Notes: generated from the letters alone by a model not told the origin. DNA of 64,000 bases from Dictyostelium discoideum (GCA_000004695.1 CM000151.3:1600001-1664000), one strand, 5' to 3'. Numbered from the stretch's first letter, positions 3,871 to 31,463 are shown. Translations and numbers: made by a program.

Positions 3871-4965
3871 AAGAGTTTTTGTGAAAAATTGATGGACCAT
3901 ATTCATCATATTCTTGTCTTGTGACATACAGTTGTAGGAAAGTTGAGAGTGAAGCTAAATAGATCCATCAATCCATACAGAATTTTTACGTTCTGGTGGT
4001 GAAACGATGTTAATGTTCGTGTTAGAAGGTGTTAAAGCAGTTAATTCTTTATTCAAACGATCAGCAAAACCTGGTAGCATGGTTGTACCACCTGACAATA
4101 AAATGCAACCATACAAATCATTTTGAATATCAACATCACACCTCTTGATTGAATTATAAGTTGATTGGTGAATACCAGCTGATCCCATACCTAATAATGA
4201 TGGTTTGAAGAGGGCTTCTGGACAATGGAAACGTTCATTTCCATCGTAATGACTTGACCATCTGGTAATTCGTATGATGTTGAGTTGGCAGCAGTTTTCA
4301 CTTCAGTTTCAAAATCTAAAGCAACGTAGGCGATTTCTCTTTGATATCTCTGACAATTTCTCTTTCGGGCAGTTGTGGAGAATGAGTTACCACGTTCGCT
4401 CAACATTTTCATCATGTAGTCAGTGAGATCATTACCAGCTAAATCTAAATGTAAAATGGAATTTGTCATAGCTTTACCTTCATAAATTGGTACAGTGTGG
4501 GAAACACCACCACCTGAATCAATAACGATACCAGTGGTACGACCAGAAGCGTATAATGATAAGATGGCTTGAATGGAAACATACATGGCTGGAATGCCAT
4601 AACATTCAAACATATATTGAGCCATTTTCTCTGTGTTGACTTTTGGATTAAATGGAGGTTCAGTTAAGAAAACTGGGTGTTGATCTGAAGAGACACAAAG
4701 TTGATCGTTGAAAGCATGATTCCAAAATTTTTTCCATATTTTCCCAGTTAATAATAATAACTTTTTCAATTGGATATTCGAGTCGTTCCAGATCTCTCTT
4801 TGATTGAGCATCATTACCTACATATGAATCAACTTGACCTATTTTCGGTTTGGAAAAACCAACAACTGATGGGAAAGCATGTGGTGATTCATCTCCAGAA
4901 AAACCGACTTTAATAATAGAAGAACCATTATCAATAACTATGGTTAACACAACAACACTTGTTTT
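3871..4965 (-). pseudogene. Actin pseudogene: full-length actin homology broken into three reading frames, premature stop, no ATG start
   Basis: ORF-track fragments 4660..4950, 4191..4814 and 3955..4188 on the minus strand each align to consecutive parts of actin (VIDNGS..., [15 protein letters not shown]..., [17 protein letters not shown]...). Frameshifts lie near 4740 and 4190. TAG stop after ...WIDGSI. The C-terminal [21 protein letters not shown] remnant continues to about 3871. Actin's MDGEDVQ N-terminus is replaced, with no ATG. Confidence 0.8.
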
Positions 4966-5367
4966 TCAATCATTTTTATTTATTGTATTGTAATAAAATG
5001 ATATAAAAAAAACTAATTCTTGGCAAATTTTTGTATTTAACAATAAAATAAATTTTATTTATTTTTATTTTTTATTGTAAAGTTGTTTAATGAATAACTT
5101 TAGATACCGATTATTTTCGAATTCTATTAATCGTTTTAAGCAAATTAAACACAAAAAAAAAAATTTTTGTAGTTGGATTTGCAAAAAAAAAAAAAAAATC
5201 GAAAAAGGTTTTGAAAATTAATATTGTGCGGATTAGCCAAATCTAACATTTTTTAATTTTTTTTTTTTAAATTTTTCAAATCAAACACTTTTTTTTTTTT
5301 TTTTTTTTTTTTTTTTATTTGTTTTTTTTTTTTTTATTATTTTTTTTTTTTTATTATTTTTCTTTTT

Positions 5368-5892
5368 TCACCTTTTTCTTTGGTATTGATTTCTTTTTTT
5401 TTCAGACCAGAAGTTTAGGCTTTGGCGATAAAATCCAATGAACAGTTCTTTGTTTTTAATTAGAGAATTATCGATGGTGTCAATAATCTCATCAAGGAAG
5501 GACCCATGGGAATTACGTTCTCGGTAGAAATGGTTCTTGATATAGCCAAAGAAACGCTCAATGGGATTCAACTCTGGAGAATAGGAAGGAAGAAATATCA
5601 ATTGAACCGAATATTGATTAAACAATTCAAATAGTGCATTTAAAGCTTCGATACCACCGTGAATTGGAGCATTGTCCATTACCAATAATGAACCAGGCTT
5701 GCAAAATCCACTTTCCAAAAGTTCTCTAACATATTGAAAGAAGTCTTCAGTATTATTGGTTTTATCACGGATTTTATACAAACAATCATCCAAACTGATG
5801 GTGAAAAACCCATTGTAGGTCTCAGAAATGCTGGTGCTATTGGTAACATAAACCGGCTCTCCAATCGGTCCAACAGCTTTAGATCTCCTTAA
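5368..5892 (-). CDS. Tc1-like DD34E transposase, C-terminal catalytic block (…LLVMDNAPIHGG…34 aa…SYSPELNPIE…)
   Basis: ORF track 5368..5793, extended upstream in frame to an AG acceptor near 5893. Classic Tc1/IS630 D(34)E spacing between the second D and the E. I could not find the first catalytic D, so the copy may be degenerate. Confidence 0.7.
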   Translation of the reverse strand, partial: LRRSKAVGPIGEPVYVTNSTSISETYNGFFTISLDDCLYKIRDKTNNTEDFFQYVRELLESGFCKPGSLLVMDNAPIHGGIEALNALFELFNQYSVQLIFLPSYSPELNPIERFFGYIKNHFYRERNSHGSFLDEIIDTIDNSLIKNKELFIGFYRQSLNFWSEKKRNQYQRKR

Positions 5893-5934
5893 TTCTAATA
5901 AAAAACCTTATTAGTTTTAATTATTTATTTTGTA

Positions 5935-5996
<62 letters not shown>

Positions 5997-6315
5997 TAAT
6001 TACCTTATAATGTTAATAGTGGAATTCAGAATGGATGGAAAGAAAGACAATTATTTAATTAAAAATATTTTTTAAAAAAAAAAAAAAAAAAATTAGTATA
6101 AATATTTATATTCAATCTAAAATAATAAAATATAATACCTCTAGAAGAAAATGAGCATTCATCTAAAAAATAAATTTTTTTCCAATCAGTATTGTAAATT
6201 ATTGTATTAAAATAAAATAATTTTAATAAATTTTCAATTTTGTATTTATTTTCCTAAAAAAAAAAAAAAAAAATTAACAAATAGTTAGTTATTTAATATA
6301 TTAAAACTTTTTTAC

Positions 6316-6724
6316 TTACTTGTTTATAGGTTGGAGAGTGGTAATTCCATTTCAATTCTTTGAATATTGAACATATCCTCGATTTGTTGACCTTTTTATA
6401 AAAAATACTATTTTGATCTGAGTTAATTTCTTGGGCGATCTCCCTCATTGTGAGATTAGGTCGGACATTAACCATTGCTACCACAGTTGCCACCAAGAGT
6501 TCATACTGTTCTGTAGTAAATGTACTTGGAGATCTGGAGCCGCCATGGGATTGTCTAATTCTATTATCTTTGATATCTCTACGGTAATAATTGAGTTGAT
6601 TTCTGGTCAAACCATTTTCACGAGCAGCTCTACTTATATTACCGATTCTAACCCCATATTCTAATGCATTGTATATTCTCTCAGTATGCTCAATTAAGTG
6701 AGTTAAACTTCTTTTAGGTTTCAT
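6316..6724 (-). CDS. Tc1-like transposase, N-terminal helix-turn-helix DNA-binding block
   Basis: ORF track 6293..6724 (MKPKRSLTHLIEHTERIYNALEYGVRIGNISRAARENGLTRNQLNYYRR...). GTAAGT/GTAAAA donor around 6316-6320. The roughly 420-bp AT-rich spacer to the 5892 acceptor contains an A50 tract. That spacer may be an intron or a disruption. Confidence 0.65.
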
Positions 6725-9240: not shown

Positions 9241-10085
9241 TTAAATTAGCAACAATATCATAATCATCGTCACAATCACAACCAAAAATACATTATACTA
9301 CTTTTCTTGGTTGCCACAGATACAATAATAAACAGTATTATTCACAAATCACTATCGATTACATAATAATAATCAAAATAATCATGAATCTTCTTCACAC
9401 AAAGATATGGGCCAACCAAAATCAACAGCAAAATCTACCGCAACAATAACATGTATTGATAGCTTTGTTTAAAGATGAGAATATGTTAAGCACATTATGG
9501 TTAGTTTGGAGAATGATCGTTGAAGAGTTATACAATTTAATAAAGAGAAATTTATTATCACCAAATCATTAAAAGAGGGTACTATTGGAAAATGCCATCA
9601 CTATTGTATTTGAAAATCATGAAACTATTGCTTTAATTGGTAAAGAATGTTGTTCCACTAGGAATACTTTTATCTATTCCAATTTCAATACTTTTGTTTC
9701 ACATCAACTGTACTAGATATAGATATTCAACAGAAACAACTACTTCAACAAATTCAACAAGTTTACTATTTTTTAACTCAGTTGACAGAAATAGTATTGG
9801 AGTGGTATAAGTAGGAAAATTGTAGAATAGTAATAGTAGAGGTTATGGCACAAGTAGAAAAAATAGTAGAGAAATTGGTTAGAATCCACTACCGTCTACT
9901 GCCATGGAACCAATACAAACAACTCAATAATCAAATTTCTATTTTAAAAATGAAGTTTCAGATATTTTGCTAAATGATAAATATCAAAAATGAAAGTTTA
10001 GAGAGTAATATAGTAGTCTCAAGTAGAAAACCATGCATTCCCTAAATTAGAGGTAAAAAGAAATGCATATTGGTGGTTAAAAAAA
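9241..10085. repeat. Unclassified, less AT-rich, non-coding segment (about 850 bp) abutting the 5' flank of the split tRNA gene; possible remnant of a tRNA-targeted retroelement
   Basis: Base composition is distinctly different from the surrounding intergenic DNA. No long ORF in any frame. Bounded on the left by a T15 tract (9217-9232) and it ends about 18 bp upstream of the tRNA 5' end. That is the distance window used by upstream-targeting elements such as DGLT-A. Confidence 0.3.
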
Positions 10086-10102
10086 ATTTTTTTCATCAAA
10101 AA

Positions 10103-10172
10103 GCCCGTGTCGTATAGTGGTTATTATATCTGTCTTGTACTATGTGCACAAAGCGATAACAGAGGGTCCTCA
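10103..10172 (+). tRNA. tRNA gene, 5' part (acceptor stem, D-arm, anticodon arm with putative UGU anticodon and about 18-nt intron, variable loop), interrupted by retrotransposon
   Basis: GCCCGTG TC GTAT AGTGGTTATT ATAT C TCTGT CTTGTA[intron CTATGTGCACAAAGCGAT]A ACAGA GGGTC CTCA| . A perfect 5-bp anticodon stem forms only if an 18-nt intron is removed after position 37. U33 and A37 are present. Anticodon TGT (Thr). Confidence 0.6.
10161..10172 (+). repeat. Target-site duplication, left copy (AGAGGGTCCTCA)
   Basis: The identical 12-mer recurs at 15433-15444, directly after the element's poly(A). Confidence 0.8.
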
Positions 10173-10338
10173 AACCGCACCGCGATCAAGAGGATACAAG
10201 ATACACGTGAAAAGTAATTCATCCTTTTCTATCCTTAATCTCGGTCAATTTTAACCAATCTTTCAAAAAAAATCACCAATCCACCACGATCTACAGATCT
10301 AATTTACCAAATCGCCGATTCAAAGGAATCCCATCGAG

Positions 10339-11592
10339 ATGAATTCCTACGCAGACGCGGCTAAAATGGCCAACCCCTCCACCCATATGGACGAGGCATC
10401 AGAGAACTTCATTAAGGAATTCTCCACAAAAACAGCAGAGATAAAGGAGACCTACCCCAAATTATCAATAGGCCTCAAAGACATCTCCAAATACTGCGAG
10501 ACCATATTGAACATGACTGCTCTCTCAACCTACGAGAAAAACAACGGATTCTACCCAATTACACTCGAATTCCCCAAAATGGATCTCATGGGGTTAGAAG
10601 AAATGAGAAAAACACTCTCAAACTACGATATCCCAATCGACAAGATATACATAGGCAAAGGAACTAGAAAAACGATCCACCTGATGATTAAAAACGAACA
10701 ATCTCTCCTAAATATCATTAGAGATAGAAGCAAATTGGGAACCTTCATCACCTCCAGTAGAGACTACCACGTCCTCACAGGAAGAGTAAGAATTCCAAGA
10801 GAAAAGGCAGGAATAGTGGATGCCCTCATCAAAACTGCCTTTGCAGAAGAAATACCCTATGCAATATACCATACTATATACTCCACCGACCACCTCCTAG
10901 TATTCGGTCTAATAGAATGCAAAATAGGCGATCAAATGAAATCTGGCCAACACAATACAGAAATCGCCAACTTTACCATCAGAACGGCCACCAAAACCTA
11001 CTCCTCACAAAAGAAAAATAAGAAAGTAGAGTCAAACAACACGGAAGAACCATTAGAAGATGAGATGACAGATGATCCTCCCAACATCCAAAACAGGATA
11101 GCAATCAAATCCTCTCAACCAAAACCACAACAACAAACAAACAACCCAGCAAACAATAAGTCTGATAAACAATCAACCCAAGAGAAAAAAGCCCAATCAA
11201 AAAAGTCCTCTCAACCTCTTCCCCCCAAAAACCAAGCAGAATCTCAATCTGTCAAACCCACCACAACCACTACCACAACATCCAACGCCATCCAAAAAGA
11301 CAATGCCAACAAAACGAGCACTAACATCCATTCATCCTCGGAAAACAGAGAGAAGACACCAAACATCCCTCCATCACATAAACGCAAGAACGAGGAAATC
11401 CACTCAAACAACGAGGTCACCCAACTCTCACCAACAATAAACAGAAGCAACCCTTACATCCCATCCACCCCTAAGACACCTGTCAATAAAGAAAGGAAAG
11501 GAATCATTGAGAGCTTCATAGAGAGTATCTACCCTTCACCATCCAAACCGCAGCTAAACGACTCCCAAGAGGAGATCGATATCATCTCATAA
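10339..11592 (+). CDS. Retrotransposon ORF1 (417 aa, basic/Ser-Thr-Pro-rich C-terminus; nucleic-acid-binding ORF1p-type)
   Basis: ORF track. Its position is 5' of the RT ORF, and its stop overlaps the ORF2 ATG (TAATG). Confidence 0.8.
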   Translation: MNSYADAAKMANPSTHMDEASENFIKEFSTKTAEIKETYPKLSIGLKDISKYCETILNMTALSTYEKNNGFYPITLEFPKMDLMGLEEMRKTLSNYDIPIDKIYIGKGTRKTIHLMIKNEQSLLNIIRDRSKLGTFITSSRDYHVLTGRVRIPREKAGIVDALIKTAFAEEIPYAIYHTIYSTDHLLVFGLIECKIGDQMKSGQHNTEIANFTIRTATKTYSSQKKNKKVESNNTEEPLEDEMTDDPPNIQNRIAIKSSQPKPQQQTNNPANNKSDKQSTQEKKAQSKKSSQPLPPKNQAESQSVKPTTTTTTTSNAIQKDNANKTSTNIHSSSENREKTPNIPPSHKRKNEEIHSNNEVTQLSPTINRSNPYIPSTPKTPVNKERKGIIESFIESIYPSPSKPQLNDSQEEIDIIS

Positions 11593-14500
11593 TGGTAGTA
11601 ATCAAAATCAACCAATGGAATGTCAGAGGTTGGGGCACTGACACCTCCTTCAAAAACAAAACAGACTTTATCAAATCCCAATCCCCCCCAAACTCATTGG
11701 CACTAACCATAGTCAATGAACTCAACGCCGACGCAACACAAGCACACCAGCTATTTCCTGGCTCCATCATTAGCGCAACCAACAGAGGCAACGGAATAGG
11801 AATACTAAACCACAACAACCAAAACATAAAACTCTCACCAATATTCATAATAGAAGGTAGACTAATAATATCAGACATTCTAATAAAAGATACCACAACG
11901 AGAATCTTGGCCATATACGCCCCGGCCCAACCTGATAAAAGAAAAACACTAGCTTCAACACTAAACAAACACTTCAACAACCAATACCACAACCTAACGT
12001 CTAACCCTAAAAAAAACATCGACATCATAGCAGGCGACTTCAATTGTTTAGACTTCAATGACAATCACACATCAAATGATGACCAAGGCAACTTGACAAC
12101 ACAATCCCCAGATGAGATGGCCACAGTAATCGAAGCCATCAGAATTTCAAATAACCTAATGGATATGGACCAACTAAATAAAAGACCCACCTTCTCAAGA
12201 ACGATACACAACACAAACAATAACCTCACAAGAATCTTGGAAAGGAGACTAGACAGAATATACCTTAACAATAGCATAATCAACTACAGCCAATTATACT
12301 TAAGGAACCTAATCCCCCCAAAAATTAATGACATACCTCTATCAGATCACAACTTCCTATCAACCACCTTCACTCTACCCAACATACAGATGAACAAGCG
12401 CAGATGGAGATTAAAAAAATCCTCAATCCTCTCAAGCATAATGCTTAAGAAAATAGACTTCCTACTTAACGATTATTCAAGGGAGCTGTCATCCAACCAT
12501 AACTCTATTTCCTTCTCTCAACTCAACAGCTTACTAAACAAAATAAAACAACTATACACAGAATTTCAAAAACAAAATGACTACAACAATAAGGCAAACA
12601 TCAAAAATCTAATCTCCCTACTAGAGACAGAATTTAAAGACCAAGCCTTCGCAACCCTTTCAGCAATAAATGAATCTAAAAAAAGAGAAGAACAACTTAA
12701 ACAAGAATTGAACAACTATTGCGAAGAAACCTCACTCAAGTACATCTCCGCGAGAATCAAGAAAAGACACAATGATTTCACCATCAACGCAGTAAAAGAT
12801 GCACAAGGTAGAACAATCAACAAACAGGAATTGATCGAAGAAGAATACGTAAAATATTACTCAAATCTTTATGACTACAAAGAAGATGACCCACCATCTC
12901 ATTATGAAATGTTGGAAAATTGGACAGTGACCAGGGACTCAACATGGGACAACCTTGAAAATGAATTCACATCACAAGAGATCCTAGAAGTAATAAAACA
13001 ATTGAACCCACACAAATCTCCAGGCCCAGATGGAATTCCAAACTTATTCTACATAACACACAAAGAAAAACTAGCTCCAATACTGGCCTCAGCATTCAAC
13101 GACACTCTAAGAAATCCTCATCTAATTAGCAAAAATTACAAAGAAGGCCTCATTATCACGATACCTAAAAAGGGAGACCCCGAACTAATCAAAAACAGAA
13201 GACCAATTACACTGGCTAACTGTATATATAAAATCCACTCAAAACTAATAAACAATAGAATAATCCCAATACTAACGAAAGTGATCAACCACAATCAAAA
13301 AGGTTTCGTACCAGGCAGATTCATTATAGATAATATCATATCAATGAACGAATTAATCAACTATTGTAATGATAAAAGAATTAACGGAATAATTACACTA
13401 TATGATTTCGAAAAAGCTTTTGACTCGATCTCACACGGTTCAATACTCAGATCACTACAACACATCAACATTCCAACCAATATAATCAACCTGATAATGA
13501 ATCTACTCACCAAATCTGAAGCAAGAATTGAAATTAATGGTAGAACTACTATACCCTTTGAGATCAAAAGAGGAGTTAAACAAGGAGATCCACTATCACC
13601 CACCCTGTTCGTCCTTGTAATAGAGGCTTTAGCTAGAAAAATTTTACAAGATGACCGAATTACTGGCCTTCCTCTAAACAACAGCAACCACAGAGAGAAA
13701 TTCCAAAGCTTTGCAGACGACTCGGCTTCAATGGTCCCAGACTCTCAACAACTTGAATTAGTACTACAACACTTCAATTCATTTTGCAAAGCCACTTCCT
13801 CAAAACTAAACATCGACAAATCTTCATCAATTCTTATAGGCAACCCAGACAATACCAACCAAAGAATTCCAATATCTACAAATCCAGAAAGATACTTGGG
13901 ATACTTCTTCACAGGCAAAGGGATAACAAGAAAAATGCCAGAAATATTAAACACAATAAGATCATCCTTAGTACTATGGAAAACCACTGACTCAACAATC
14001 AAAACCAAAACCAACATCCTCAAAGCATTCGCACTCTCTAAATTAACCTACTATTCATATGTAGAGAACTTTAAGGAAGAGGAATTAAACCAAATCAATA
14101 AATTAGTCGAATGGTTTTTATCGGCACCAAACAACAAAAATGCTAGTGGATTTCAAGTTATTAATTTAATGAGAACCAAAAGAGCAAGATACCCACTAAA
14201 AGTAGGGGGCTGGAACATTTGGAATATAGAATTGAGACAACTGGCGCAGAAACTTTGGATCATAAACCAGTTCATCCTAGCACTAGAAACCAAACAAACA
14301 AACTCATCTCATCACAAAAGCTGGGAATATCAGATCCAAAAAAACAAATTCACATCCAGATACCTAAAAGAAAACTTAGACGAATGGAACAAAATAAGAA
14401 TAAAAAAAGCAATCTTCAACAATAATCTCACATCCATAAAAAACGAAAATGGACAACCACTTTCACTGGCAGAATGGTATACCACAATTCAAGACCAAAA

Positions 14501-15296
14501 TCCAACCATCCCTAAAACGGAATTCCAATCATCTCTAAACTTAAGAGGCTACAGCTATAATCAACTCTTCAACAACATACTGAAGATAAAAGACCCTAAA
14601 ACAAGAGACACAATGTTTAGATTCCATGCCAGATGCCTTCCAATAAACTACCTTCACAACAAACAATGCCCACTCTGCAAAGAAGATATGAGCAAAGACC
14701 CATACGGTCACCTGTTCTTCTCATGCAAGAAAACAAAACAATTCATAAAAATAAATAAACTCAAAAATTTCATCTATATTACCACAGGCAAAGGTAAAAA
14801 CTGGCACCATACAAGAATTAGGCAAAATAACAATTTCATTAATAGAATAACTCCAAAATTATCACCGACAGCCAAAAAAGATCAAGAAGTGAATGCAGAT
14901 TACGCCAACCACAGATTCCACAAAGAATACTTTGAATGGAACTATAAAGCAATAGACTATGATCTAACTAGATCATTCGCATATAGAAACCTAATGGCCC
15001 TTATCCTCCACAACATTTGGATTTGGATTTGCAATCAAATATACAGTGAAGATCCTTTAACAGATGAATCACTATCATACAGCTCCCTTCTAAAGAAATG
15101 GCACAAATTGGCCACTCTAGAATACATCAAAAAAGCAAAAGATCTGAAAAACTTATCAGCAAAAGACCATAATAACTTCAAAGATCCTAAGATCCTTCTC
15201 ACTTCAACGATCAAGTTAAGAAAAACAACAGCTAATTACTATTGTATTCCAGAATCATCTCTCCCAAATATTATATCTTTTGATCAATTCATATGA
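11592..15296 (+). CDS. Retrotransposon ORF2 (1234 aa): N-terminal apurinic/apyrimidinic-type endonuclease, central reverse transcriptase (…FVPGRFIIDN…YDFEKAFDSISH…GVKQGDPLSPTLF…FADD), C-terminal CxxC…HxxxxC zinc knuckle
   Basis: Conserved RT motifs (including the catalytic FADD box) and L1-like endonuclease motifs are readable directly in the translation. Confidence 0.9.
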   Translation: MVVIKINQWNVRGWGTDTSFKNKTDFIKSQSPPNSLALTIVNELNADATQAHQLFPGSIISATNRGNGIGILNHNNQNIKLSPIFIIEGRLIISDILIKDTTTRILAIYAPAQPDKRKTLASTLNKHFNNQYHNLTSNPKKNIDIIAGDFNCLDFNDNHTSNDDQGNLTTQSPDEMATVIEAIRISNNLMDMDQLNKRPTFSRTIHNTNNNLTRILERRLDRIYLNNSIINYSQLYLRNLIPPKINDIPLSDHNFLSTTFTLPNIQMNKRRWRLKKSSILSSIMLKKIDFLLNDYSRELSSNHNSISFSQLNSLLNKIKQLYTEFQKQNDYNNKANIKNLISLLETEFKDQAFATLSAINESKKREEQLKQELNNYCEETSLKYISARIKKRHNDFTINAVKDAQGRTINKQELIEEEYVKYYSNLYDYKEDDPPSHYEMLENWTVTRDSTWDNLENEFTSQEILEVIKQLNPHKSPGPDGIPNLFYITHKEKLAPILASAFNDTLRNPHLISKNYKEGLIITIPKKGDPELIKNRRPITLANCIYKIHSKLINNRIIPILTKVINHNQKGFVPGRFIIDNIISMNELINYCNDKRINGIITLYDFEKAFDSISHGSILRSLQHINIPTNIINLIMNLLTKSEARIEINGRTTIPFEIKRGVKQGDPLSPTLFVLVIEALARKILQDDRITGLPLNNSNHREKFQSFADDSASMVPDSQQLELVLQHFNSFCKATSSKLNIDKSSSILIGNPDNTNQRIPISTNPERYLGYFFTGKGITRKMPEILNTIRSSLVLWKTTDSTIKTKTNILKAFALSKLTYYSYVENFKEEELNQINKLVEWFLSAPNNKNASGFQVINLMRTKRARYPLKVGGWNIWNIELRQLAQKLWIINQFILALETKQTNSSHHKSWEYQIQKNKFTSRYLKENLDEWNKIRIKKAIFNNNLTSIKNENGQPLSLAEWYTTIQDQNPTIPKTEFQSSLNLRGYSYNQLFNNILKIKDPKTRDTMFRFHARCLPINYLHNKQCPLCKEDMSKDPYGHLFFSCKKTKQFIKINKLKNFIYITTGKGKNWHHTRIRQNNNFINRITPKLSPTAKKDQEVNADYANHRFHKEYFEWNYKAIDYDLTRSFAYRNLMALILHNIWIWICNQIYSEDPLTDESLSYSSLLKKWHKLATLEYIKKAKDLKNLSAKDHNNFKDPKILLTSTIKLRKTTANYYCIPESSLPNIISFDQFI

Positions 15297-15393
15297 TTAA
15301 AATAACCCTTCAGCTTAAATGATAAGCCTTTAAATAAATATTAAATAAAACTCGTATTAACACAGATGGACATATATCAATCTTGTTAATCCA

Positions 15394-15432
<39 letters not shown>

Positions 15433-15437
<5 letters not shown>

Positions 15438-15444
15438 GTCCTCA
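15433..15444 (+). repeat. Target-site duplication, right copy (AGAGGGTCCTCA)
   Basis: Immediately follows the A35 tail. Identical to 10161-10172. Confidence 0.8.
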
Positions 15445-15465
15445 GTTCGATTCTGAGCTCGGGCA
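15433..15465 (+). tRNA. tRNA gene, 3' part (T-arm CTCAG-TTCGATT-CTGAG, acceptor 3' strand CTCGGGC, discriminator A)
   Basis: Perfect 5-bp T-stem with a B-box-like T-loop (GTTCGATTC). The acceptor strand pairs 6/7 with GCCCGTG at 10103. Followed directly by a T6 Pol III terminator. Confidence 0.6.
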
Positions 15466-15471
15466 TTTTTT
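15466..15471 (+). terminator. Pol III oligo(T) terminator of the tRNA gene
   Basis: TTTTTT immediately after the discriminator base. Confidence 0.5.
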
Positions 15472-15494
15472 CCTCCTAGACAGGATGGATCAAT

Positions 15495-15504
15495 GGTTCG
15501 AATC
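15495..15504 (+). promoter_or_regulatory. Extra B box (ex-B, GGTTCGAATC), about 30 bp downstream of the tRNA 3' end
   Basis: Perfect B-box consensus outside the tRNA body. A downstream ex-B box is an established feature of many Dictyostelium tRNA genes and a TFIIIC site. Confidence 0.5.
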
Positions 15505-15666
15505 TGCAAAAATTAATAATAAAACTTATTTTTTTTTATATTAGGTTTTTAAACTGGTTGTGTAGGTTGTGAGTTTTTATTTTTATTTTTTTATATATTT
15601 TTTTTTTAGCAAATTAAATTGTTTTTTTGGATAGATTCAAACTAAAAAAAATTTTATTTTTTTATT

Positions 15667-16272
15667 TTAATTATTACAGTAATAGATTTCTGGTGTATTT
15701 TGGCTACACTCTGGGAATTCTAGAGCATGAGAGAATATAGCGTTTGTGCAGGAATCGGTACTAAAATAATAATTCTCATCATATGAAGTCTCATTACAAC
15801 TTGTAGTTTTAATAGAGCCAACATCAGTATAGGTGCATATATTTAAACCCAAGGAAGCTACTTGAATAATATCATCCTTCCAAGCAGGGTTAGAATCAGG
15901 GCATTGGCCATTTGTTAAATATTCAACTAGTGAATTAGTTCCAAGATCATAATCTTCTGTACAACTATAAATAACATTATTTGATGTTCCAAAATCATTG
16001 GTACATTTATTTGCTTCAAGATTTATAGATTCAGATCCACCTTGACAATTTGATCCATAATATTGGGTTCTTGTTATATTATTATTTGCAGCATCACATG
16101 TATACATAAGGCTTGTTCCTTCATTACATAAATTGGTTGTTCTATAATGAACAAGGGTCATTCCATTTTTACAAGAATAATCATTTATTTGATAGTATTC
16201 AACTTTAAGATATCCTGAATAAATACTTTTAAATAATAATGATAAAAATATAAATTGAAATAAAATTTTCAT
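15667..16272 (-). CDS. Small secreted cysteine-rich protein (201 aa; signal peptide MKILFQFIFLSLLFKSIYS; about 16 Cys; possibly ponticulin-like)
   Basis: ORF track, N-terminal signal peptide, cysteine spacing typical of small extracellular Dictyostelium proteins. Family assignment is tentative. Confidence 0.55.
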   Translation of the reverse strand: MKILFQFIFLSLLFKSIYSGYLKVEYYQINDYSCKNGMTLVHYRTTNLCNEGTSLMYTCDAANNNITRTQYYGSNCQGGSESINLEANKCTNDFGTSNNVIYSCTEDYDLGTNSLVEYLTNGQCPDSNPAWKDDIIQVASLGLNICTYTDVGSIKTTSCNETSYDENYYFSTDSCTNAIFSHALEFPECSQNTPEIYYCNN

Positions 16273-16615: not shown

Positions 16616-16877
16616 TTATTTAAAACTTCTAAGTTTAAAACGTTGTTTTACAGAGAATGATTTTTTCATTGTAAATAATCTAATGGAATATCTATGTTTT
16701 CTATAAATTAAAATAGCACCTAATGTGAGAAGTGAAACACAAACAACTGGTACAACAACAGCAACTGGAATTACCCAATTTTTTTTTGTTTCTGAATTAC
16801 CACAAGATGATTCAAAGTTTGGAGATACTATTATTTTAAAATTAATTAATTAATAATTTTTTTTTAAAAAAATTAGA

Positions 16878-16949
<72 letters not shown>

Positions 16950-19900
16950 TTAAAAAAATTATTATACAAACCTAAAACAGAGAAATCTGGATCAATAAAA
17001 CATTCATTTGAACAATGTGGTAAATTTAAACCAACAACAATTGTAGAAGATGAAGATAAATCTTTAACAATTTCACTAGACATAAAAGTTGATCTTCCAT
17101 CAGATACAACTTTATTAATGAATCTACCACTTAAAATTTTTGAATTCTTTGAAATTGAAATGTAATTTAATGTTAAATTTGGATCAATATTTGAGGTATC
17201 AGATTCAGATTCATGTTGATTACAAGAGTTATCTTCTTCACTATCAAGATTTGATGTTTCACCTGCAGATGATAAAAATCTTAATTGTAATGTATTTAGG
17301 GCACTTTCATATTGATAATTTTTAATTGAAACTGAAATTTTTAAACCACCTTGATCAATTTCTAAATTCATACCTGCAAATGTATATTTTTTAGATGAAT
17401 TAACAATTTCTTCAATTATTAAGGTTATATTTGAAAATTGATCAATTTGTTGTGAAAATTGATAAATATATTTGGTGGATGGATCAATGGTAATATCCCA
17501 TTTCTTTTTTAAATCATTGGTTTTAACAACCTCACCATTATAATCTAATTCAACAATTGAAATTATTGAAATTTCATAATTTACATCTTGATTACTAATT
17601 GATGCTGCCCCAGTTTCCACATTGACTTCTGTTTTTGATACTGGAATTTCTTGATTCTTTGTTTCTCCTCCAATTGTGGTTGAAGTTGTTGATGAAGATG
17701 ATGTTGTAGGTGGTTTAAGTGATGAACAATCAAAACCAGAATAATCAGAACTACAAGTACAAACACCAATTGATGTATCACATTTACCATGATTTGAACA
17801 ATCTTTTGGACATTTAAATACTGTACTAATATATTGGAATTTATTTTTACCAATAAAACTACTACCATTTTGTGTTATGTTTACATCTTTTGTACCTGAG
17901 CCTGCTGGTAATTCACAAATAATTGTATTTTCAGTTTCTATTGGATCAACACATTCAACTCCTCCAATTGTTACTGTTAAATTAATATGTTGATTACTAA
18001 ACCAACCATAAATTGTAACTTGACCACCACTTGTTGTACATGGATCAATTGAACTTAAATAATGAATTGGTGTTGTACAATTATCAGATTTCCAATTGGG
18101 AGTACATTTACATTTACCAATGTCATAATTACAAACACCATTATTTAAACAATTTACTGAACATAAAATACCACTACAATCTGAATAGGTCGTACCATCA
18201 TTACATGAACAAATACCAGTTTGATTATTACATGAACCTAAACCACTACATTCGATATTATTTTTTGATGGACAAGTAATTAAATTTAATTCACAACTTT
18301 CACCTTGATGAGATGAATCACAATTACATTTTCCTATGGTAGTATCACAAATACCATGACCATTACAGTCTGACTGACATCTAATACCACTACAATCAGC
18401 GCCAACTCTACCAATATCGCAGGTACAACTACCAGTTTGATTATTACATGTGCCCCATCCACTACAAATTGCTTTGTTTGAAGTTGGACATGAAACTAAA
18501 TCCATTTCACAACCAGCTCCTTGGTGAGAAGAATCACAATTACATTGACCTACAGTGGTATCACAATAGCCATGTCCACTGCAATCTGATACTGGACATG
18601 AAATACCACTACAATCACTACCTACTCTATTAGCATCACAAGTACAAATACCAGTTTGATAGTTACATGTACCCCACCCACTACAAGTTGCTTTGTTTGA
18701 AGTTGGACATAAAATTAAATCCATTTCACAACCAGCTCCTTGATGAGAAGAATCACAATTACATTGACCTATAGTGGTATCACAATAGCCATGTCCACTG
18801 CAATCCGATACTGGACATGCAATACCACTACAATCACTACCTACTCTATTAGCATCACAAGTACAAATACCAGTTTGATTATTACATGTACCCCATCCAC
18901 TACAAACTGACCTATTTGGCGTTGGACATGAAACAAAATTCATTTCACAATTAGCTCCCTGATGAGATGGATCACAACTACATTGACCTACAGTGGTATC
19001 ACAATTACCATTTCCATTACAGTTTGGTACTGGACATGAAATACCACTACAATCACTACCTACTCTATTAGCATCACAAGTACAAATACCAGTTTGATTA
19101 TTACATGTGCCCCATCCACTACAAATTGCTTTATTTGAAGTTGGACATGAAACTAAATCCATTTCACAACCAGCTCCTTGATGAGAAGAATCACAATTAC
19201 ATTTACCAATACTAGTATCACAATAACCATGATCACTACAATCTGATATTGGACATGCAGTTTCACTACAATCATTACCTGTTCTACCAGTACCACATGC
19301 ACATACACCTGTCTTTTTATCACATATACCAAATCCACTACAAATAAGACTAGAATCATTAGATGGACAAATTAATGAAACGACTATAGATGAACAATCA
19401 ATACCTCCATATCCTTCATAACAATCACAAGATCCAGTTCTTGAAATACATAATCCATGATTACTGCAACCGTTTAGACATTGAAAAATTTTAATTTGAG
19501 TACCATTTTGTAAATTAGGATCATAATCAACTGTTAGATGTACACCCAATGTTTGCCAACCAGCCAAGTTCCTAACGGTTAAATATGTTTTCATATTTAA
19601 ACCCAAAACCAAAGAATCATCGACAGCAGTAGTAGTTGTAGTTCCAAGTTGATTGGTAGTTGCAAGTGAATTATCAGCTATAATTATTTCGCTATTACTA
19701 TTTGTCATTTCAATTGCATTACTAATGACACATTCAATTCTATAAAATGTTGAAGAGATAATATTACAATAATAATTTGAAATATTAATGGAAATTAAAG
19801 TTTTATCATATGTGAAATCAGAACCATCAAAAATAACTGTATAATTTGGATAAACTGTTACCATTGAAACAGTTGGATTGTTTTGAATTACTCTTGCGAA

Positions 19901-20270
19901 TAATGTTACTCCTGGATTTTGGAAAAAAATGGAAAACAATTGATTGGTTGAATAAGTATAACTGGCACTAAATCTTGTTGATGGAATTTCCACTTCCCAT
20001 TGTAAATTTGGTATTGTTACTATATTGCTACCATTAAAACCTAAATTTCTACCTTCCATATAAATTTTACCAGTTCCCATTCTCAATGATGGTTCAATTG
20101 CACCACAATAACTATTTGCTGAATCTTTATTTGTAAAATAATTTCCTAAAAAATTATTTTCTAAATTATTTTTCATAAAACAAATAAAACAATTTGGGAT
20201 TAAACTTTTTTATTTTTATTTTTTTAATAATAAAAAATGGATTAATAATTTTTAATTAAAAAAAAAACAA

Positions 20271-21638: not shown

Positions 21639-21951
21639 CTTACATTGAAGTTAAATTAAAAAAACCAACAAACTCATTGGGCATTGGATTTATATCATCA
21701 ATATTACTGTGTAAAATTATTTCTGTAATATAACTTCCAAAACATTTAAAACTAATTCCATCACACAAAATATTTTCTTTACCAACGAATTCCTTATCGC
21801 TATAAATGGGTTGAATGGTATTATTTCCATGATTATTTAGAATCCCCACTGCTAAATTATATTCAGTTCTTATGATTGCATTATTAATTCCAATTAATAA
21901 TGTTATTATTAATACCAATATTAAAAATAAATTATTAATATAATATTTCAT
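16616..21951 (-). CDS. Multi-exon gene (at least 6 exons) for a type-I membrane receptor-like protein: signal peptide, leucine-rich repeats, large domain with about 10 tandem EGF/tenascin-type Cys repeats, TM helix, short basic tail
   Basis: Exons reconstructed from minus-strand ORFs 21640..21951 (signal peptide MKYYINNLFLILVLIITLLIG), 21312..21545, an exon near 21145-21245, an exon near 20940-21090, 20359..20826 (LRR), 20204..16972 (main ORF 16850..20176) and final exon 16827..16616 (SPNFESSCGNSETKKNW-VIPVAVVVPVVCVSLLTLGAILIY-RKHRYSIRLF...*). Two introns carry (AAT)n microsatellites that the raw ORF reads through as poly-Ile. Confidence 0.6.
16972..20204 (-). CDS. Main exon of the LRR-EGF receptor gene (EGF-like CxxGxCxCxxxxxGxDCS repeats, Ser/Thr-rich stalk)
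   Basis: ORF track 16850..20176 (1108 aa), trimmed at a GTTTGT donor upstream of the (AAT)30 tract and extended to the acceptor at about 20205. Confidence 0.7.
18400..19320. repeat. Near-identical tandem DNA repeats of about 210 bp inside the EGF-repeat exon (units encode CSGWGTCNNQTGICTCDANRVGSDCSGI(S/A)CPVSDCSGHGYCDTT(V/I)GQCNCDSSHQGAGCEMDL…)
   Basis: At least three copies share long stretches of identical nucleotides (for example ccactacaatcactacctactctattagcatcacaagtacaaataccagtttga). This indicates recent repeat expansion or homogenisation. Confidence 0.7.
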
Positions 21952-25185: not shown

Positions 25186-26167
25186 AATTAAAAAAAAAAA
25201 AAAAACAATTCAATTTCCATGTAAAGAGTATGTGTTAATTCTTCATTCGTTTTTATTTTCCAAATACAATTTTTTTTTTTATTTATTTAACCACAATCAA
25301 CTTTGGTTTTTTTTAGATTTTTAATTTTTTAAATTTAATAAATAATCTTTTTTTATTTATATTTTTTTTTTTTTTTTTTTTTTTATCCCAAAAAATAATA
25401 CACTAAGATGAAATGAAAAAAAAATTTCAACAGAGAAAAAAAAAAAAAAAAAAAAAATTTTTTTATAATATAGTACAAATAAGAATAATCAATAAACAAA
25501 AAATATAAACCCCAAAAAAAACAATGAGTTAATTGAAAAATACATATAATAAAGTTAATTAAACTTTAATTTGATTTTCGCCATTTTGCTTAAAAAAAGA
25601 AATTAAATTATCAACACTAATATTATTTATAAATATATTTTTTGCCATTAAGTGTTGGTGATGCATCTTTTGCTCAAAATATGAGAGGTGGTGTGTCTGT
25701 ATTTGGTAAAGAAACAATATTTACTGTGTTTCGAGAGTTTGTGCTACTTTTCTCTCCCCTTTAATTTTTAATGATTGATATTAATGAACCAAAAGCAAAT
25801 TTTCATCAATAGACCTTTTTATTTTTTTTTTTTTTTTTTTTTTTAATACAACATTTGGGTAATTTATTTATTTATTTATTTTTTTTTTTTTTTTTTTTTT
25901 TGCCCATAATCAAAAAAATCTTAATCTTTTTTGGAAAGCATTCAGAAATAAAATTAAAAATAAAAAAAAAAAAAAATTAAAAATAAATAAAAAATAAATA
26001 AAAAAAGATTTTTTTTAGATTCTATTGATGAATTTGCTTATGGGGTTTTGATGTGCTATCGAAATTGTGAAAATTAAAAAAAAAAATTATTTAATAATTT
26101 TTTTTTTTTTTTTTTTGTCATTCACAATTTATTTTTCTTCTTTAAAAATCTCTTTTTTTTTTTTATT

Positions 26168-29713: not shown

Positions 29714-30922
29714 ATGCCAATTTCAATTTCATTTAAAAAATCAGAAATATTTATAAATTATCCATTGGTTTATTTGCAAAATGTAGCATATCAACCAAAA
29801 GAAACAGTAATTTATAAAACAGATTATCTTGTAACTAGTGGTTGTAAAGATACACCAAGTGATCATACATGTCCAGGTGCAACAGAAATCAATGGTAAAT
29901 TAATAAGAGATAGTCAAGGATTTTGTTGTAGTTGTTAAATGTCTGATTATATTGATGCTGATCAAAATTCAAGAGCAAATTTAGGTTGTTCACTATTAGG
30001 TTCCCAATCATCATCAGCACACTGTTTATCATTTAGTCCAATGAAATATGATGTTTATAATATTGCCAAAACTCAAGTTGAATATAAAATCACAGCAACA
30101 TTAACCTATAGTTATAATCAAAATCCAATCACTCAAGATATAATTTTATCAAATTCAAATCCAATGGGAATGGATTCATTCAGCCAAGCTATGATTAGAA
30201 TTGTTGGCGATTTTCAATCGTCAACTCAAATTAATCAATTCACTGATAAGAAAGTTGTGTTTCCATATAATCAACCAAATTCAATAAATACTGCTATGTT
30301 GTTAGACCAGAATTTCTTTGATTTGTCAGGGTTAACATGTAATAAAATTGGGGTTTCCTATAGTGCCTTTCAAAATCAACCAAATAAATGTGCAGCTTTA
30401 TTTGGGTCTTGCCTTCAAAATCAAATCGCTGATTATTATAATGCTGATGTCACATTAATTTCAAATGGAAAGAAAGGAAACTATATTGCATCTCAATTTG
30501 GTACAAAAGTTGCAGGTGACCAAAATTCAAGATCATTGAAAATTAGATTCGATGAATCTCATAGAACAATGTTAACAATTACATTGAAAGCTGATTCACT
30601 TCAATATAGAGTTGATATATCACCAGGTAAAATTATAAGTTATCAAATCGATCGATTTGAGTCAATGTCAAAAAATGGTATATTAAGAGTAAAAGTTCAA
30701 AATATTGGTACAATTAATTCAGATTATACATTGGCAATAGTTAATTGTTCAGGTGATATTAATCCTATAGATAGTAAAGATGTAACCATAAAATCAAAGG
30801 AAATTTATAGTTTTGAATTTCAAATTTTTACAACTTCAAAATTAGATTCATCTTATCAATGTTTTGGTGATTTATATAATGAAGTTGCTCAAGTTATCCA
30901 TAGTTGCCCATGCCAAAATTAA
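29714..30922 (+). pseudogene. HAP2/GCS1-like ORF interrupted by an in-frame TAA (29936-29938) and ending at the edge of a foldback element; probable gene fragment/pseudogene
   Basis: Two ORFs (29714..29938 and 29939..30922) lie in the same frame, separated by a single stop: …IRDSQGFCCSC*MSDYIDADQNSRANLGCSLLGSQSSSAHCLSF… The CC-x-C … SAHCL pattern matches my recollection of the HAP2-GCS1 signature domain. No TM helix or tail follows. Confidence 0.45.
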
Positions 30923-31463
30923 TATGGCTGCTGAAATTAATATGGTAATTTTGGCATGGGACTTATGTCTGCTAGAATTACCACATTAATTTCAGCAGCC
31001 ATATTAATTTTGGCATGCACAGACCAACTATTTTAGGCTGAAATTAATATGGCTGCCGAAATTAATATGGTAATTTTGGGCATAGAAAAATAAAAAAAAA
31101 ACTCAAAGTCATTTAATTAATAATAATCATCTCAAATATAAAAGAATTAAAAATAATAAAAAAAAACTCATGGGATTAATTACAGTAACAATACTGATGA
31201 CAAGAATAATTATAAAATAAAAAAAAAAAAAAAATCTTTTTTTATCTTTTTATTTTTATTTCTTATTTATTTTCATGTGTTCAAAAAAAGTGGTGGTTTA
31301 AAACAATTTATTTAATTTTAAACTGTATGATTGTTTAAACAATTTCGAAATAAGTTTCTTTAAAGAAATTCTGTATTTCTTTTTTTTATTTTATTTTATT
31401 TCATTTCATTCTATTTTTTTATTTTTATTTTTTTATTTTTTTTTTTTTTTTTGTATATTTAAG

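Follow-up and report, generated by a model that had tools for sequence, protein, structure and literature searches.

TRE elements are a standard example of how retrotransposons can persist in a compact, haploid genome: they insert at fixed distances from transfer RNA (tRNA) genes, where they do no harm. TRE5 elements lie upstream of tRNA genes in the opposite orientation and have untranslated regions (UTRs) of modular structure, and TRE3 elements lie 40-150 bp downstream in the same orientation as the tRNA (PMC5911963). For TRE3-A in strain AX4 of Dictyostelium discoideum, distances of 14-228 bp downstream of tRNA genes were given for 60 of 67 copies (PMC5006619). The copies of this family sit downstream of both B boxes, and according to reviews TRE3 is "always" found on the downstream side of tRNA genes. 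Experimental mobility was followed, in the literature searched, for TRE5-A only, through profiles of its de novo integration (PMC3159450, PMC5391098). The locus described here lies in a 64,000-nucleotide stretch of AX4 chromosome 2 (GCA_000004695.1, CM000151.3:1600001-1664000), called the window below, and consists of a full-length non-long-terminal-repeat (non-LTR) retrotransposon, assigned to TRE3-A, that is located within a threonine tRNA gene.

The target gene and the insertion junctions

The two tRNA fragments that flank the element (Table 1), when joined, were called by ARAGORN with introns allowed (-i) as a 91-nt tRNA-Thr(UGU) gene with an 18-nt intron at the canonical position 37/38. 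The cloverleaf showed an acceptor stem with one U.U mismatch and a perfect T arm. The intact gene of another strain (locus L001, described below) matched the Rfam model RF00005 over the whole model length with 47.6 bits (E = 4e-9; gathering score 29). The target has the attributes of a nuclear tRNA gene, namely the cloverleaf, the canonical intron position, A and B boxes, an oligo-T terminator and a score above the curated threshold. An initial annotation of the window had proposed that an element resembling a long interspersed nuclear element (LINE) lies inside, not beside, an intron-containing tRNA gene with the anticodon UGU. ARAGORN on the joined flanks, Rfam on the intact gene, and the empty site in other strains all agreed with this.

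The 12-mer AGAGGGTCCTCA had exactly two matches in the window, one at each end of the element, where about 0.05 would be expected even at one mismatch. It occurred once in the empty sites, and the 12-bp duplication described earlier was thereby confirmed. The element separates gene position 70 from position 71 and has the same orientation as the tRNA; the top-strand break falls between mature tRNA positions 52 and 53, which is the 5' edge of the B box. The initial annotation had put the break at tRNA position 70, within the B box, which needs small corrections: the break is at the edge of the box, and a complete B box, AGTTCGATTCT, survives to the right of the element because of the 12-bp duplication. 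The 5' junction is 21 bp before the 3' end of the tRNA gene, outside every reported or measured TRE3-A distance.

The junctions imply a bottom-strand nick at 10160/10161 and a top-strand nick 12 bp further on, at 10172/10173, with the poly(A) end of the element primed at the first nick. The hallmarks of target-primed reverse transcription were present: a perfect 12-bp duplication, a tail of A34-35, a complete 5' end and two intact open reading frames (ORFs). The A run at 15399-15433 is 35 nt long and its last A doubles as the first base of the duplication, which gives a tail of 34 or 35 A. The insertion is young; the earlier description of a complete, probably young element with intact ORF1 and ORF2 and a long poly(A) was borne out.

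The A box remains to the left of the element, and the B box, the terminator and the external B box (ex-B box) are on its right, 5.3 kb away. The split tRNA-Thr copy should be transcriptionally dead, because tRNA promoters are known to depend on the spacing between the A box and the B box. ARAGORN found no tRNA in the window, either without or with introns allowed, and the split gene was thus missed; a tRNA gene divided in this way escapes tRNA scanners. AX4 has one fewer tRNA-Thr(UGU) gene than AX2.

Table 1. Coordinates of the element, its target-site duplication and the parts of the split tRNA-Thr(UGU) gene in the window
Feature	Position	Strand	Details or basis
tRNA-Thr(UGU) 5' fragment, gene positions 1-70	10103-10172	+	ARAGORN -i on joined flanks; uninterrupted in L001, L005 and L006
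tRNA-Thr exon 1	10103-10139	+	ARAGORN -i
A box of tRNA-Thr	about 10110-10120	+	
tRNA-Thr intron, 18 nt	10140-10157	+	ARAGORN -i
tRNA-Thr exon 2, start	10158-10172	+	ARAGORN -i
Target-site duplication, 12 bp, left copy, AGAGGGTCCTCA	10161-10172	+	Mature tRNA positions 41-52; only two matches in the window
Non-LTR retrotransposon assigned to TRE3-A, full length, 5260 bp including tail	10173-15432	+	5225 bp body plus poly(A)
5' UTR of element	10173-10338	+	
ORF1, 417 amino acids, intact	10339-11592	+	
ORF2, 1234 amino acids, intact, -1 frame	11592-15296	+	One-base overlap with ORF1 (TAATG)
3' UTR of element	15297-15398	+	
Poly(A) tail, 34 A	15399-15432	+	
Target-site duplication, 12 bp, right copy	15433-15444	+	Motif count
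Internal B box, complete, AGTTCGATTCT	15444-15454	+	Last duplication base plus tRNA 3' fragment
tRNA-Thr 3' fragment, gene positions 71-91	15445-15465	+	ARAGORN, Rfam
T6 terminator of RNA polymerase III	15466-15471	+	Directly after the tRNA-Thr 3' fragment (15445-15471 together)
External B box (ex-B box), GGTTCGAATCT	15495-15505	+	Motif scan; 50 bp downstream of the insertion point

The empty site in other strains

An uninterrupted form of the locus was retrieved through the flanking CfaA-like protein (window 15670-16272, minus strand), which by exact look-up is XP_645265.1 (DDB_G0272198). The exact joined-flank sequence, with a single AGAGGGTCCTCA, was found at 10808-10898 on the minus strand of locus L001 (GCA_054883475.1). 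The spacing between the CfaA-like gene and the actin gene was 1423 bp in L001 versus 6695 bp in the window, and the difference of 5272 bp is exactly the element plus one 12-mer. The uninterrupted gene was also present in two wild D. discoideum isolates, at loci L006 (GCA_054859355.1) and L005 (GCA_054859385.1). The empty state, an intact tRNA gene with its ex-B box, is therefore ancestral. The check proposed earlier, a comparison with other strains for an empty site, was thus answered in three assemblies.

Over 20.7 kb, the flanks of L001 and the window showed 12 substitutions (0.06%) besides differences in homopolymer length, while those of the wild isolates differed by about 3%. From this near-identity and the assembly statistics in PMC12745789 (Table 1 of that paper), GCA_054883475.1 is with good support taken to be the strain AX2-214, and it is referred to as the presumed AX2 below. 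Both exons of the tRNA gene were 100% identical in the four strains (alignment of the window, L001, L005 and L006), the intron varied at no more than 4 positions, and the flanks diverged. Invariant exons beside a variable intron and flanks are to be expected when a functional tRNA gene is under constraint. In the same alignment the ex-B box was conserved in all four strains within a diverged spacer, and its conservation extended to the 5' context, GATCAATGGTTCGAATCTG.

Across window positions 339-26294, the differences from L001 were almost only in the lengths of A/T homopolymers, and the runs of the presumed AX2-214 were always the shorter ones, which is probably compression in a long-read assembly and not biology. 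What few substitutions there were lay in clusters, at 21681-21793 and 25458-25464, and mostly in low-complexity sequence. The wild locus L005 (8600-12016) is rearranged, with the adjacent actin gene inverted, and its tRNA-Thr gene lies between two actin genes and not beside the CfaA-like gene.

Structure and family of the element

The element starts with AACCGCACCGCGATCAAGAGG, and its 5' end, AACCGCACCGCGATC, agreed with the 5' ends of other full-length copies. ORF1 had no match to a Pfam family; its residues 59-417 are, by exact look-up, the AX4 protein XP_645263.1 (DDB_G0272448), and it differed by one amino acid from P0136 and P0138, which were present at seven AX2 loci. Residues 176-1234 of ORF2 are XP_645264.1 (DDB_G0272290), also by exact look-up. 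The accessions XP_645263, XP_645264 and XP_645265 are consecutive on AX4 chromosome 2, which is 8,484,197 bp long.

The domains of ORF2 followed the order known from TRE3-A, that is, endonuclease, reverse transcriptase and zinc motif. The reverse transcriptase was a clear match to Pfam RVT_1 (E = 1e-33, residues 524-771). The N-terminus resembled apurinic/apyrimidinic endonucleases, with a weak match to Exo_endo_phos that spanned the whole profile (residues 9-253; E = 0.005, below the Pfam cut-off), and a zinc motif, C-X2-C-X10-H-X4-C, could be read in the translation near the C-terminus. Among Dictyostelium proteins, the search gave only P0004 and P0005 (about 1560 amino acids) as distant relatives of ORF2, at 30% identity. 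ORF2 was letter-identical to GenBank AAD43055.1, "pol [D. discoideum]". As a separate observation, this original reference protein of the family may derive from the present atypical copy or from an identical one.

The architecture is that of TRE3-A, with two ORFs between short UTRs, ORF2 in the -1 frame and a poly(A) tail, and it agrees with the published description of TRE ORF layout and tail (PMC5911963). Without its tail the body of the element measured 5225 bp, which matches the TRE3-A consensus of 5229 bp; the consensus of TRE3-B has 5279 bp and that of TRE3-C 4734 bp (PMC5006619, Table 1). In the presumed AX2, 13 full-length 5' ends with ORF1 were found; AX4 is reported to hold 13 intact full-length TRE3-A copies and 9 of TRE3-B (PMC5006619). 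The AX2 count equals the former figure and exceeds the latter. As judged from sequence length and behaviour, the element is TRE3-A. It is an ordinary member of the family, already annotated in the reference genome, and not a new kind of element.

Other copies and the targeting rule of the family

The copies compared came from the presumed AX2 and comprised 13 with a full-length 5' end (L002-L004, L007-L014), one 5'-truncated copy (L015) and two upstream tandem partners, represented by their 3' ends. This sample represents part of the TRE3-A family, in which repeats are imperfectly assembled. The full-length copies were 98.5-99.6% identical to the window copy. For eight copies ARAGORN called a tRNA gene upstream, at a distance of 61-160 bp and always on the same strand (8/8); these genes were Ser-AGA, Phe-GAA, Leu-AAG, Asn-GUU, Ser-UGA, Arg-UCU and two intron-containing ones. 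The copies at L010 and L015 were found, as read by eye, about 75-90 bp downstream of tRNA genes, and L003 and L007 were element-element tandems.

The ends of the other copies examined carried neither the 12-mer nor any tRNA sequence, and their flanks differed in each case. The insertion as first described thereby survives the objection that the element might be a composite whose own ends contain these sequences. Ten other copies followed the downstream, same-orientation rule, and the window copy followed the orientation rule and departed from the distance rule. The missed distance is a property of the insertion event and not of the element sequence, and family membership is unaffected.

Two further arrangements were seen among these copies. 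At L002 (2785-2829), a 45-bp fragment of the TRE3-A 3' terminus with an A12 tail lay between tRNA-Ser(AGA) and the full-length TRE3-A. This is an extremely 5'-truncated tandem copy whose tail joins an internal position of the 3' UTR (...cgtatt/A), which suggests an alternative polyadenylation site. At L009 (about 1800-1829), a 29-nt repeat of the TRE3-A 5' end, aaaaaaaaccgcaccgcgatcaagaggat, lay directly upstream of the full-length copy and may be a product of template switching at the 5' end or a remnant of an earlier copy.

Proposed mechanism and origin of the insertion

It is highly probable that the locus arose when a full-length TRE3-A entered a functional tRNA-Thr(UGU) gene with an intron, on AX4 chromosome 2, by target-primed reverse transcription. 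The most likely cause is a rare, mis-positioned event of target-primed reverse transcription guided by the RNA polymerase III (Pol III) complex. The pre-integration complex would have been recruited by Pol III factors on the tRNA-Thr gene, as in normal TRE3 targeting, and the nicks would have been displaced by about 80-180 bp upstream of the usual position, into the gene. Reverse transcription would then have started at the bottom-strand nick, with cleavage of the second strand 12 bp further on, and loss of the tRNA-Thr copy would have been tolerated through the redundancy of tRNA genes. Recruitment by Pol III would account both for the canonical orientation of the element and for a hit on so small a target, about 0.1% of the genome.

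The insertion can also be placed in time. AX2 and AX3, the parent of AX4, were independently derived from DdB, an NC4 clone selected by 1967 at the latest (PMC2643946). A site that is filled in AX4 and empty in the presumed AX2, with DdB as the common clonal ancestor, points to an insertion in the AX3/AX4 laboratory lineage. The insertion most likely arose during laboratory propagation of that lineage, and TRE3-A would then be an element that is mobile at present.

Several points weigh against this account of mechanism and date. It concerns a single event, whose sequence does not reveal why the nicks were displaced; recruitment of TRE3 by transcription factor IIIC (TFIIIC) is a hypothesis of the literature; and the identity of GCA_054883475.1 as AX2-214 was deduced and does not come from its record. 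A very recent copy should have a progenitor that is 100% identical, and none was found among the sampled AX2 copies, of which the closest were 99.56-99.73% identical (99.56% over 3420 bp). No locus other than this one in AX4 carried the exact ORF1 and ORF2 proteins. Elsewhere, the sole exact match to part of a protein was P0095 in L015, the 5'-truncated copy, which occupies a canonical site downstream of an intron-containing tRNA gene.

The lack of an identical progenitor among the sampled copies would also be expected if the insertion were old and polymorphic in the NC4/DdB stock, or if AX2 had lost it by precise deletion via the 12-bp repeats, and structural differences among NC4 stocks are on record (PMC2643946). 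An origin of this kind, in place of a new event in AX3/AX4, is nevertheless unlikely. The two copies of the duplication match perfectly, neither ORF is broken, the poly(A) tail is long, and the flanking haplotype is AX2-like with 0.06% substitutions. DdB was a clone, and the insertion was absent from both wild isolates. Non-LTR elements, moreover, do not excise, and a precise deletion mediated by 12 bp is rare.

For the position of the insertion, a TRE3-A complex without Pol III guidance might have struck the tRNA gene by chance. The position fits no known TRE3 distance rule, and the nick site (top strand ATAAC/AGAGG) is not A-rich and shows little visible sequence preference of the endonuclease, all of which is in keeping with untargeted integration. 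However, about 418 tRNA genes (PMC5633606) of about 80 bp amount to only about 0.1% of the 34-Mb genome, or 0.05% when the orientation must match as well. All 10 of the other copies examined (10/10) and all 60 measured in AX4 (60/60) were associated with tRNA genes, which indicates that untargeted events are rare. A chance hit is accordingly judged quite improbable.

The ex-B box offers another way to explain the position. If TFIIIC were bound to it in inverted orientation, the tRNA gene, at about 50-60 bp, would be on its "downstream" side. The motif is close to a palindrome: read on the minus strand, as GATTCGAACC, it still conforms to the B-box pattern, and the motif scan matched 15495-15504 on both strands. 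The 50-62 bp from the ex-B box to the nicks also resemble the distance of about 60-70 bp between ex-B box and element at L002 and L004. As TRE3 orientation follows that of the tRNA (8/8 measured copies), an element on the minus strand would be predicted, whereas the observed element is on the plus strand. The ex-B box as an inverted target was rejected on this ground, with a fitting distance and a wrong predicted orientation, and must be considered very unlikely.

The same distance had earlier been taken as a possible hint of mis-measured targeting guided by TFIIIC/TFIIIB. The figure of about 50 bp was correct, while a TRE5-like measurement found no support and nothing links the distance to a mechanism. 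A 48-bp rule of the TRE5 kind, counted from the ex-B box, was rejected, as the element is assigned to TRE3-A and its orientation is wrong for TRE5.

Canonical targeting about 100 bp downstream of some other tRNA gene or orphan B box, with the insertion falling by chance inside tRNA-Thr, would fit the ability of TRE3 to use an internal or an external B box (PMC5911963). ARAGORN with introns found no tRNA in the window, Rfam in E-value mode gave no tRNA-like match in 9300-10400, and the pattern G[GA]TTC[GA]ANNC did not occur on either strand between 5574 and 13437. D. discoideum tRNA genes are sometimes paired, which would also suit such an arrangement. A second tRNA or B box upstream as the true target is effectively refuted by these scans, and this origin of the position is hardly to be entertained.

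Misplacement of a repeat copy in the AX4 reference assembly has a negligible chance of explaining the locus: although TRE3-A copies are 98.5-99.7% identical to one another and the original shotgun assembly had difficulty in placing repeats, mis-joining cannot make a target-site duplication, the left junction consists of the 5' part of the tRNA, the 12-mer and the exact element 5' end, the right junction consists of poly(A), the same 12-mer and the remaining tRNA, and the filled and empty sites differ in length by exactly the element plus one 12-mer.

Other features of the window

A match to the Rfam microRNA precursor mir-7131 was found on both strands at 30921-31007 (93-94 bits; gathering score 74), where the sequence forms a near-palindromic hairpin. 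The minus strand at 16850-20176 carries a large ComC-like gene with EGF and TIG domains and internal tandem repeats of about 219 bp, which are 80-83% identical; the length of its gene model differs by strain (1525, 1427 and 1557 amino acids). In the presumed AX2, a gene model at 14273-17009 of L001 (window 3876-6724) fuses a DDE_3 transposase domain with an actin domain. At window positions 3876-4830, a second actin copy (84% identical) lies beside short minus-strand ORFs, an arrangement that may represent the remnant of a DNA transposon next to an actin paralogue.

Significance and comparison with known systems

The locus demonstrates that the landmark tRNA gene itself can be struck. No TRE insertion inside a tRNA gene was reported in the literature searched, which is not proof of its being unreported; both the splitting of the tRNA gene and the AX4/AX2 polymorphism appear to be unreported in the searchable literature. 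The dated polymorphism between the two main laboratory lineages implies recent activity of TRE3-A.

It is possible, though this is put forward tentatively, that unselected TRE3-A insertions scatter more widely around the Pol III complex and reach the body of the tRNA gene, in which case the pattern of about 100 bp would be partly the result of purifying selection and not of precision alone. If so, the AX4-specific event of the laboratory era would be the first visible example of this wider scatter and direct evidence that TRE3-A is still mobile, and the orphaned pair of B box and ex-B box could remain in place as a TFIIIC site that serves no gene. Whether the precision of TRE3 targeting comes from mechanism or from selection becomes a testable question.

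Compared with described systems, the copy is an outlier of a known one. It is like other TRE3-A elements (formerly Tdd-3) in length, in its two ORFs with ORF2 in the -1 frame, in domain order, in its poly(A) tail and in its orientation on the tRNA strand. It differs in position, with an insertion point 21 bp within the tRNA gene where the family range is 14-228 bp past the gene end, and it destroys the very gene that is regarded as the safe landmark of the family. TRE5-A (DRE) is likewise a Pol III-associated non-LTR element of the same superfamily, but TRE5 insertions precede the start of the tRNA and have the opposite orientation, and the 50 bp at the present locus are measured to the ex-B box and not to the tRNA start. 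The fish Dada DNA transposons and site-specific R1/R2-type elements also end inside a multicopy RNA gene, where the damage is buffered by redundancy (PMC8869645). In those systems a fixed sequence within the RNA gene is recognised as a rule, whereas the insertion in tRNA-Thr(UGU) is a single exception in a family that lands outside its genes.

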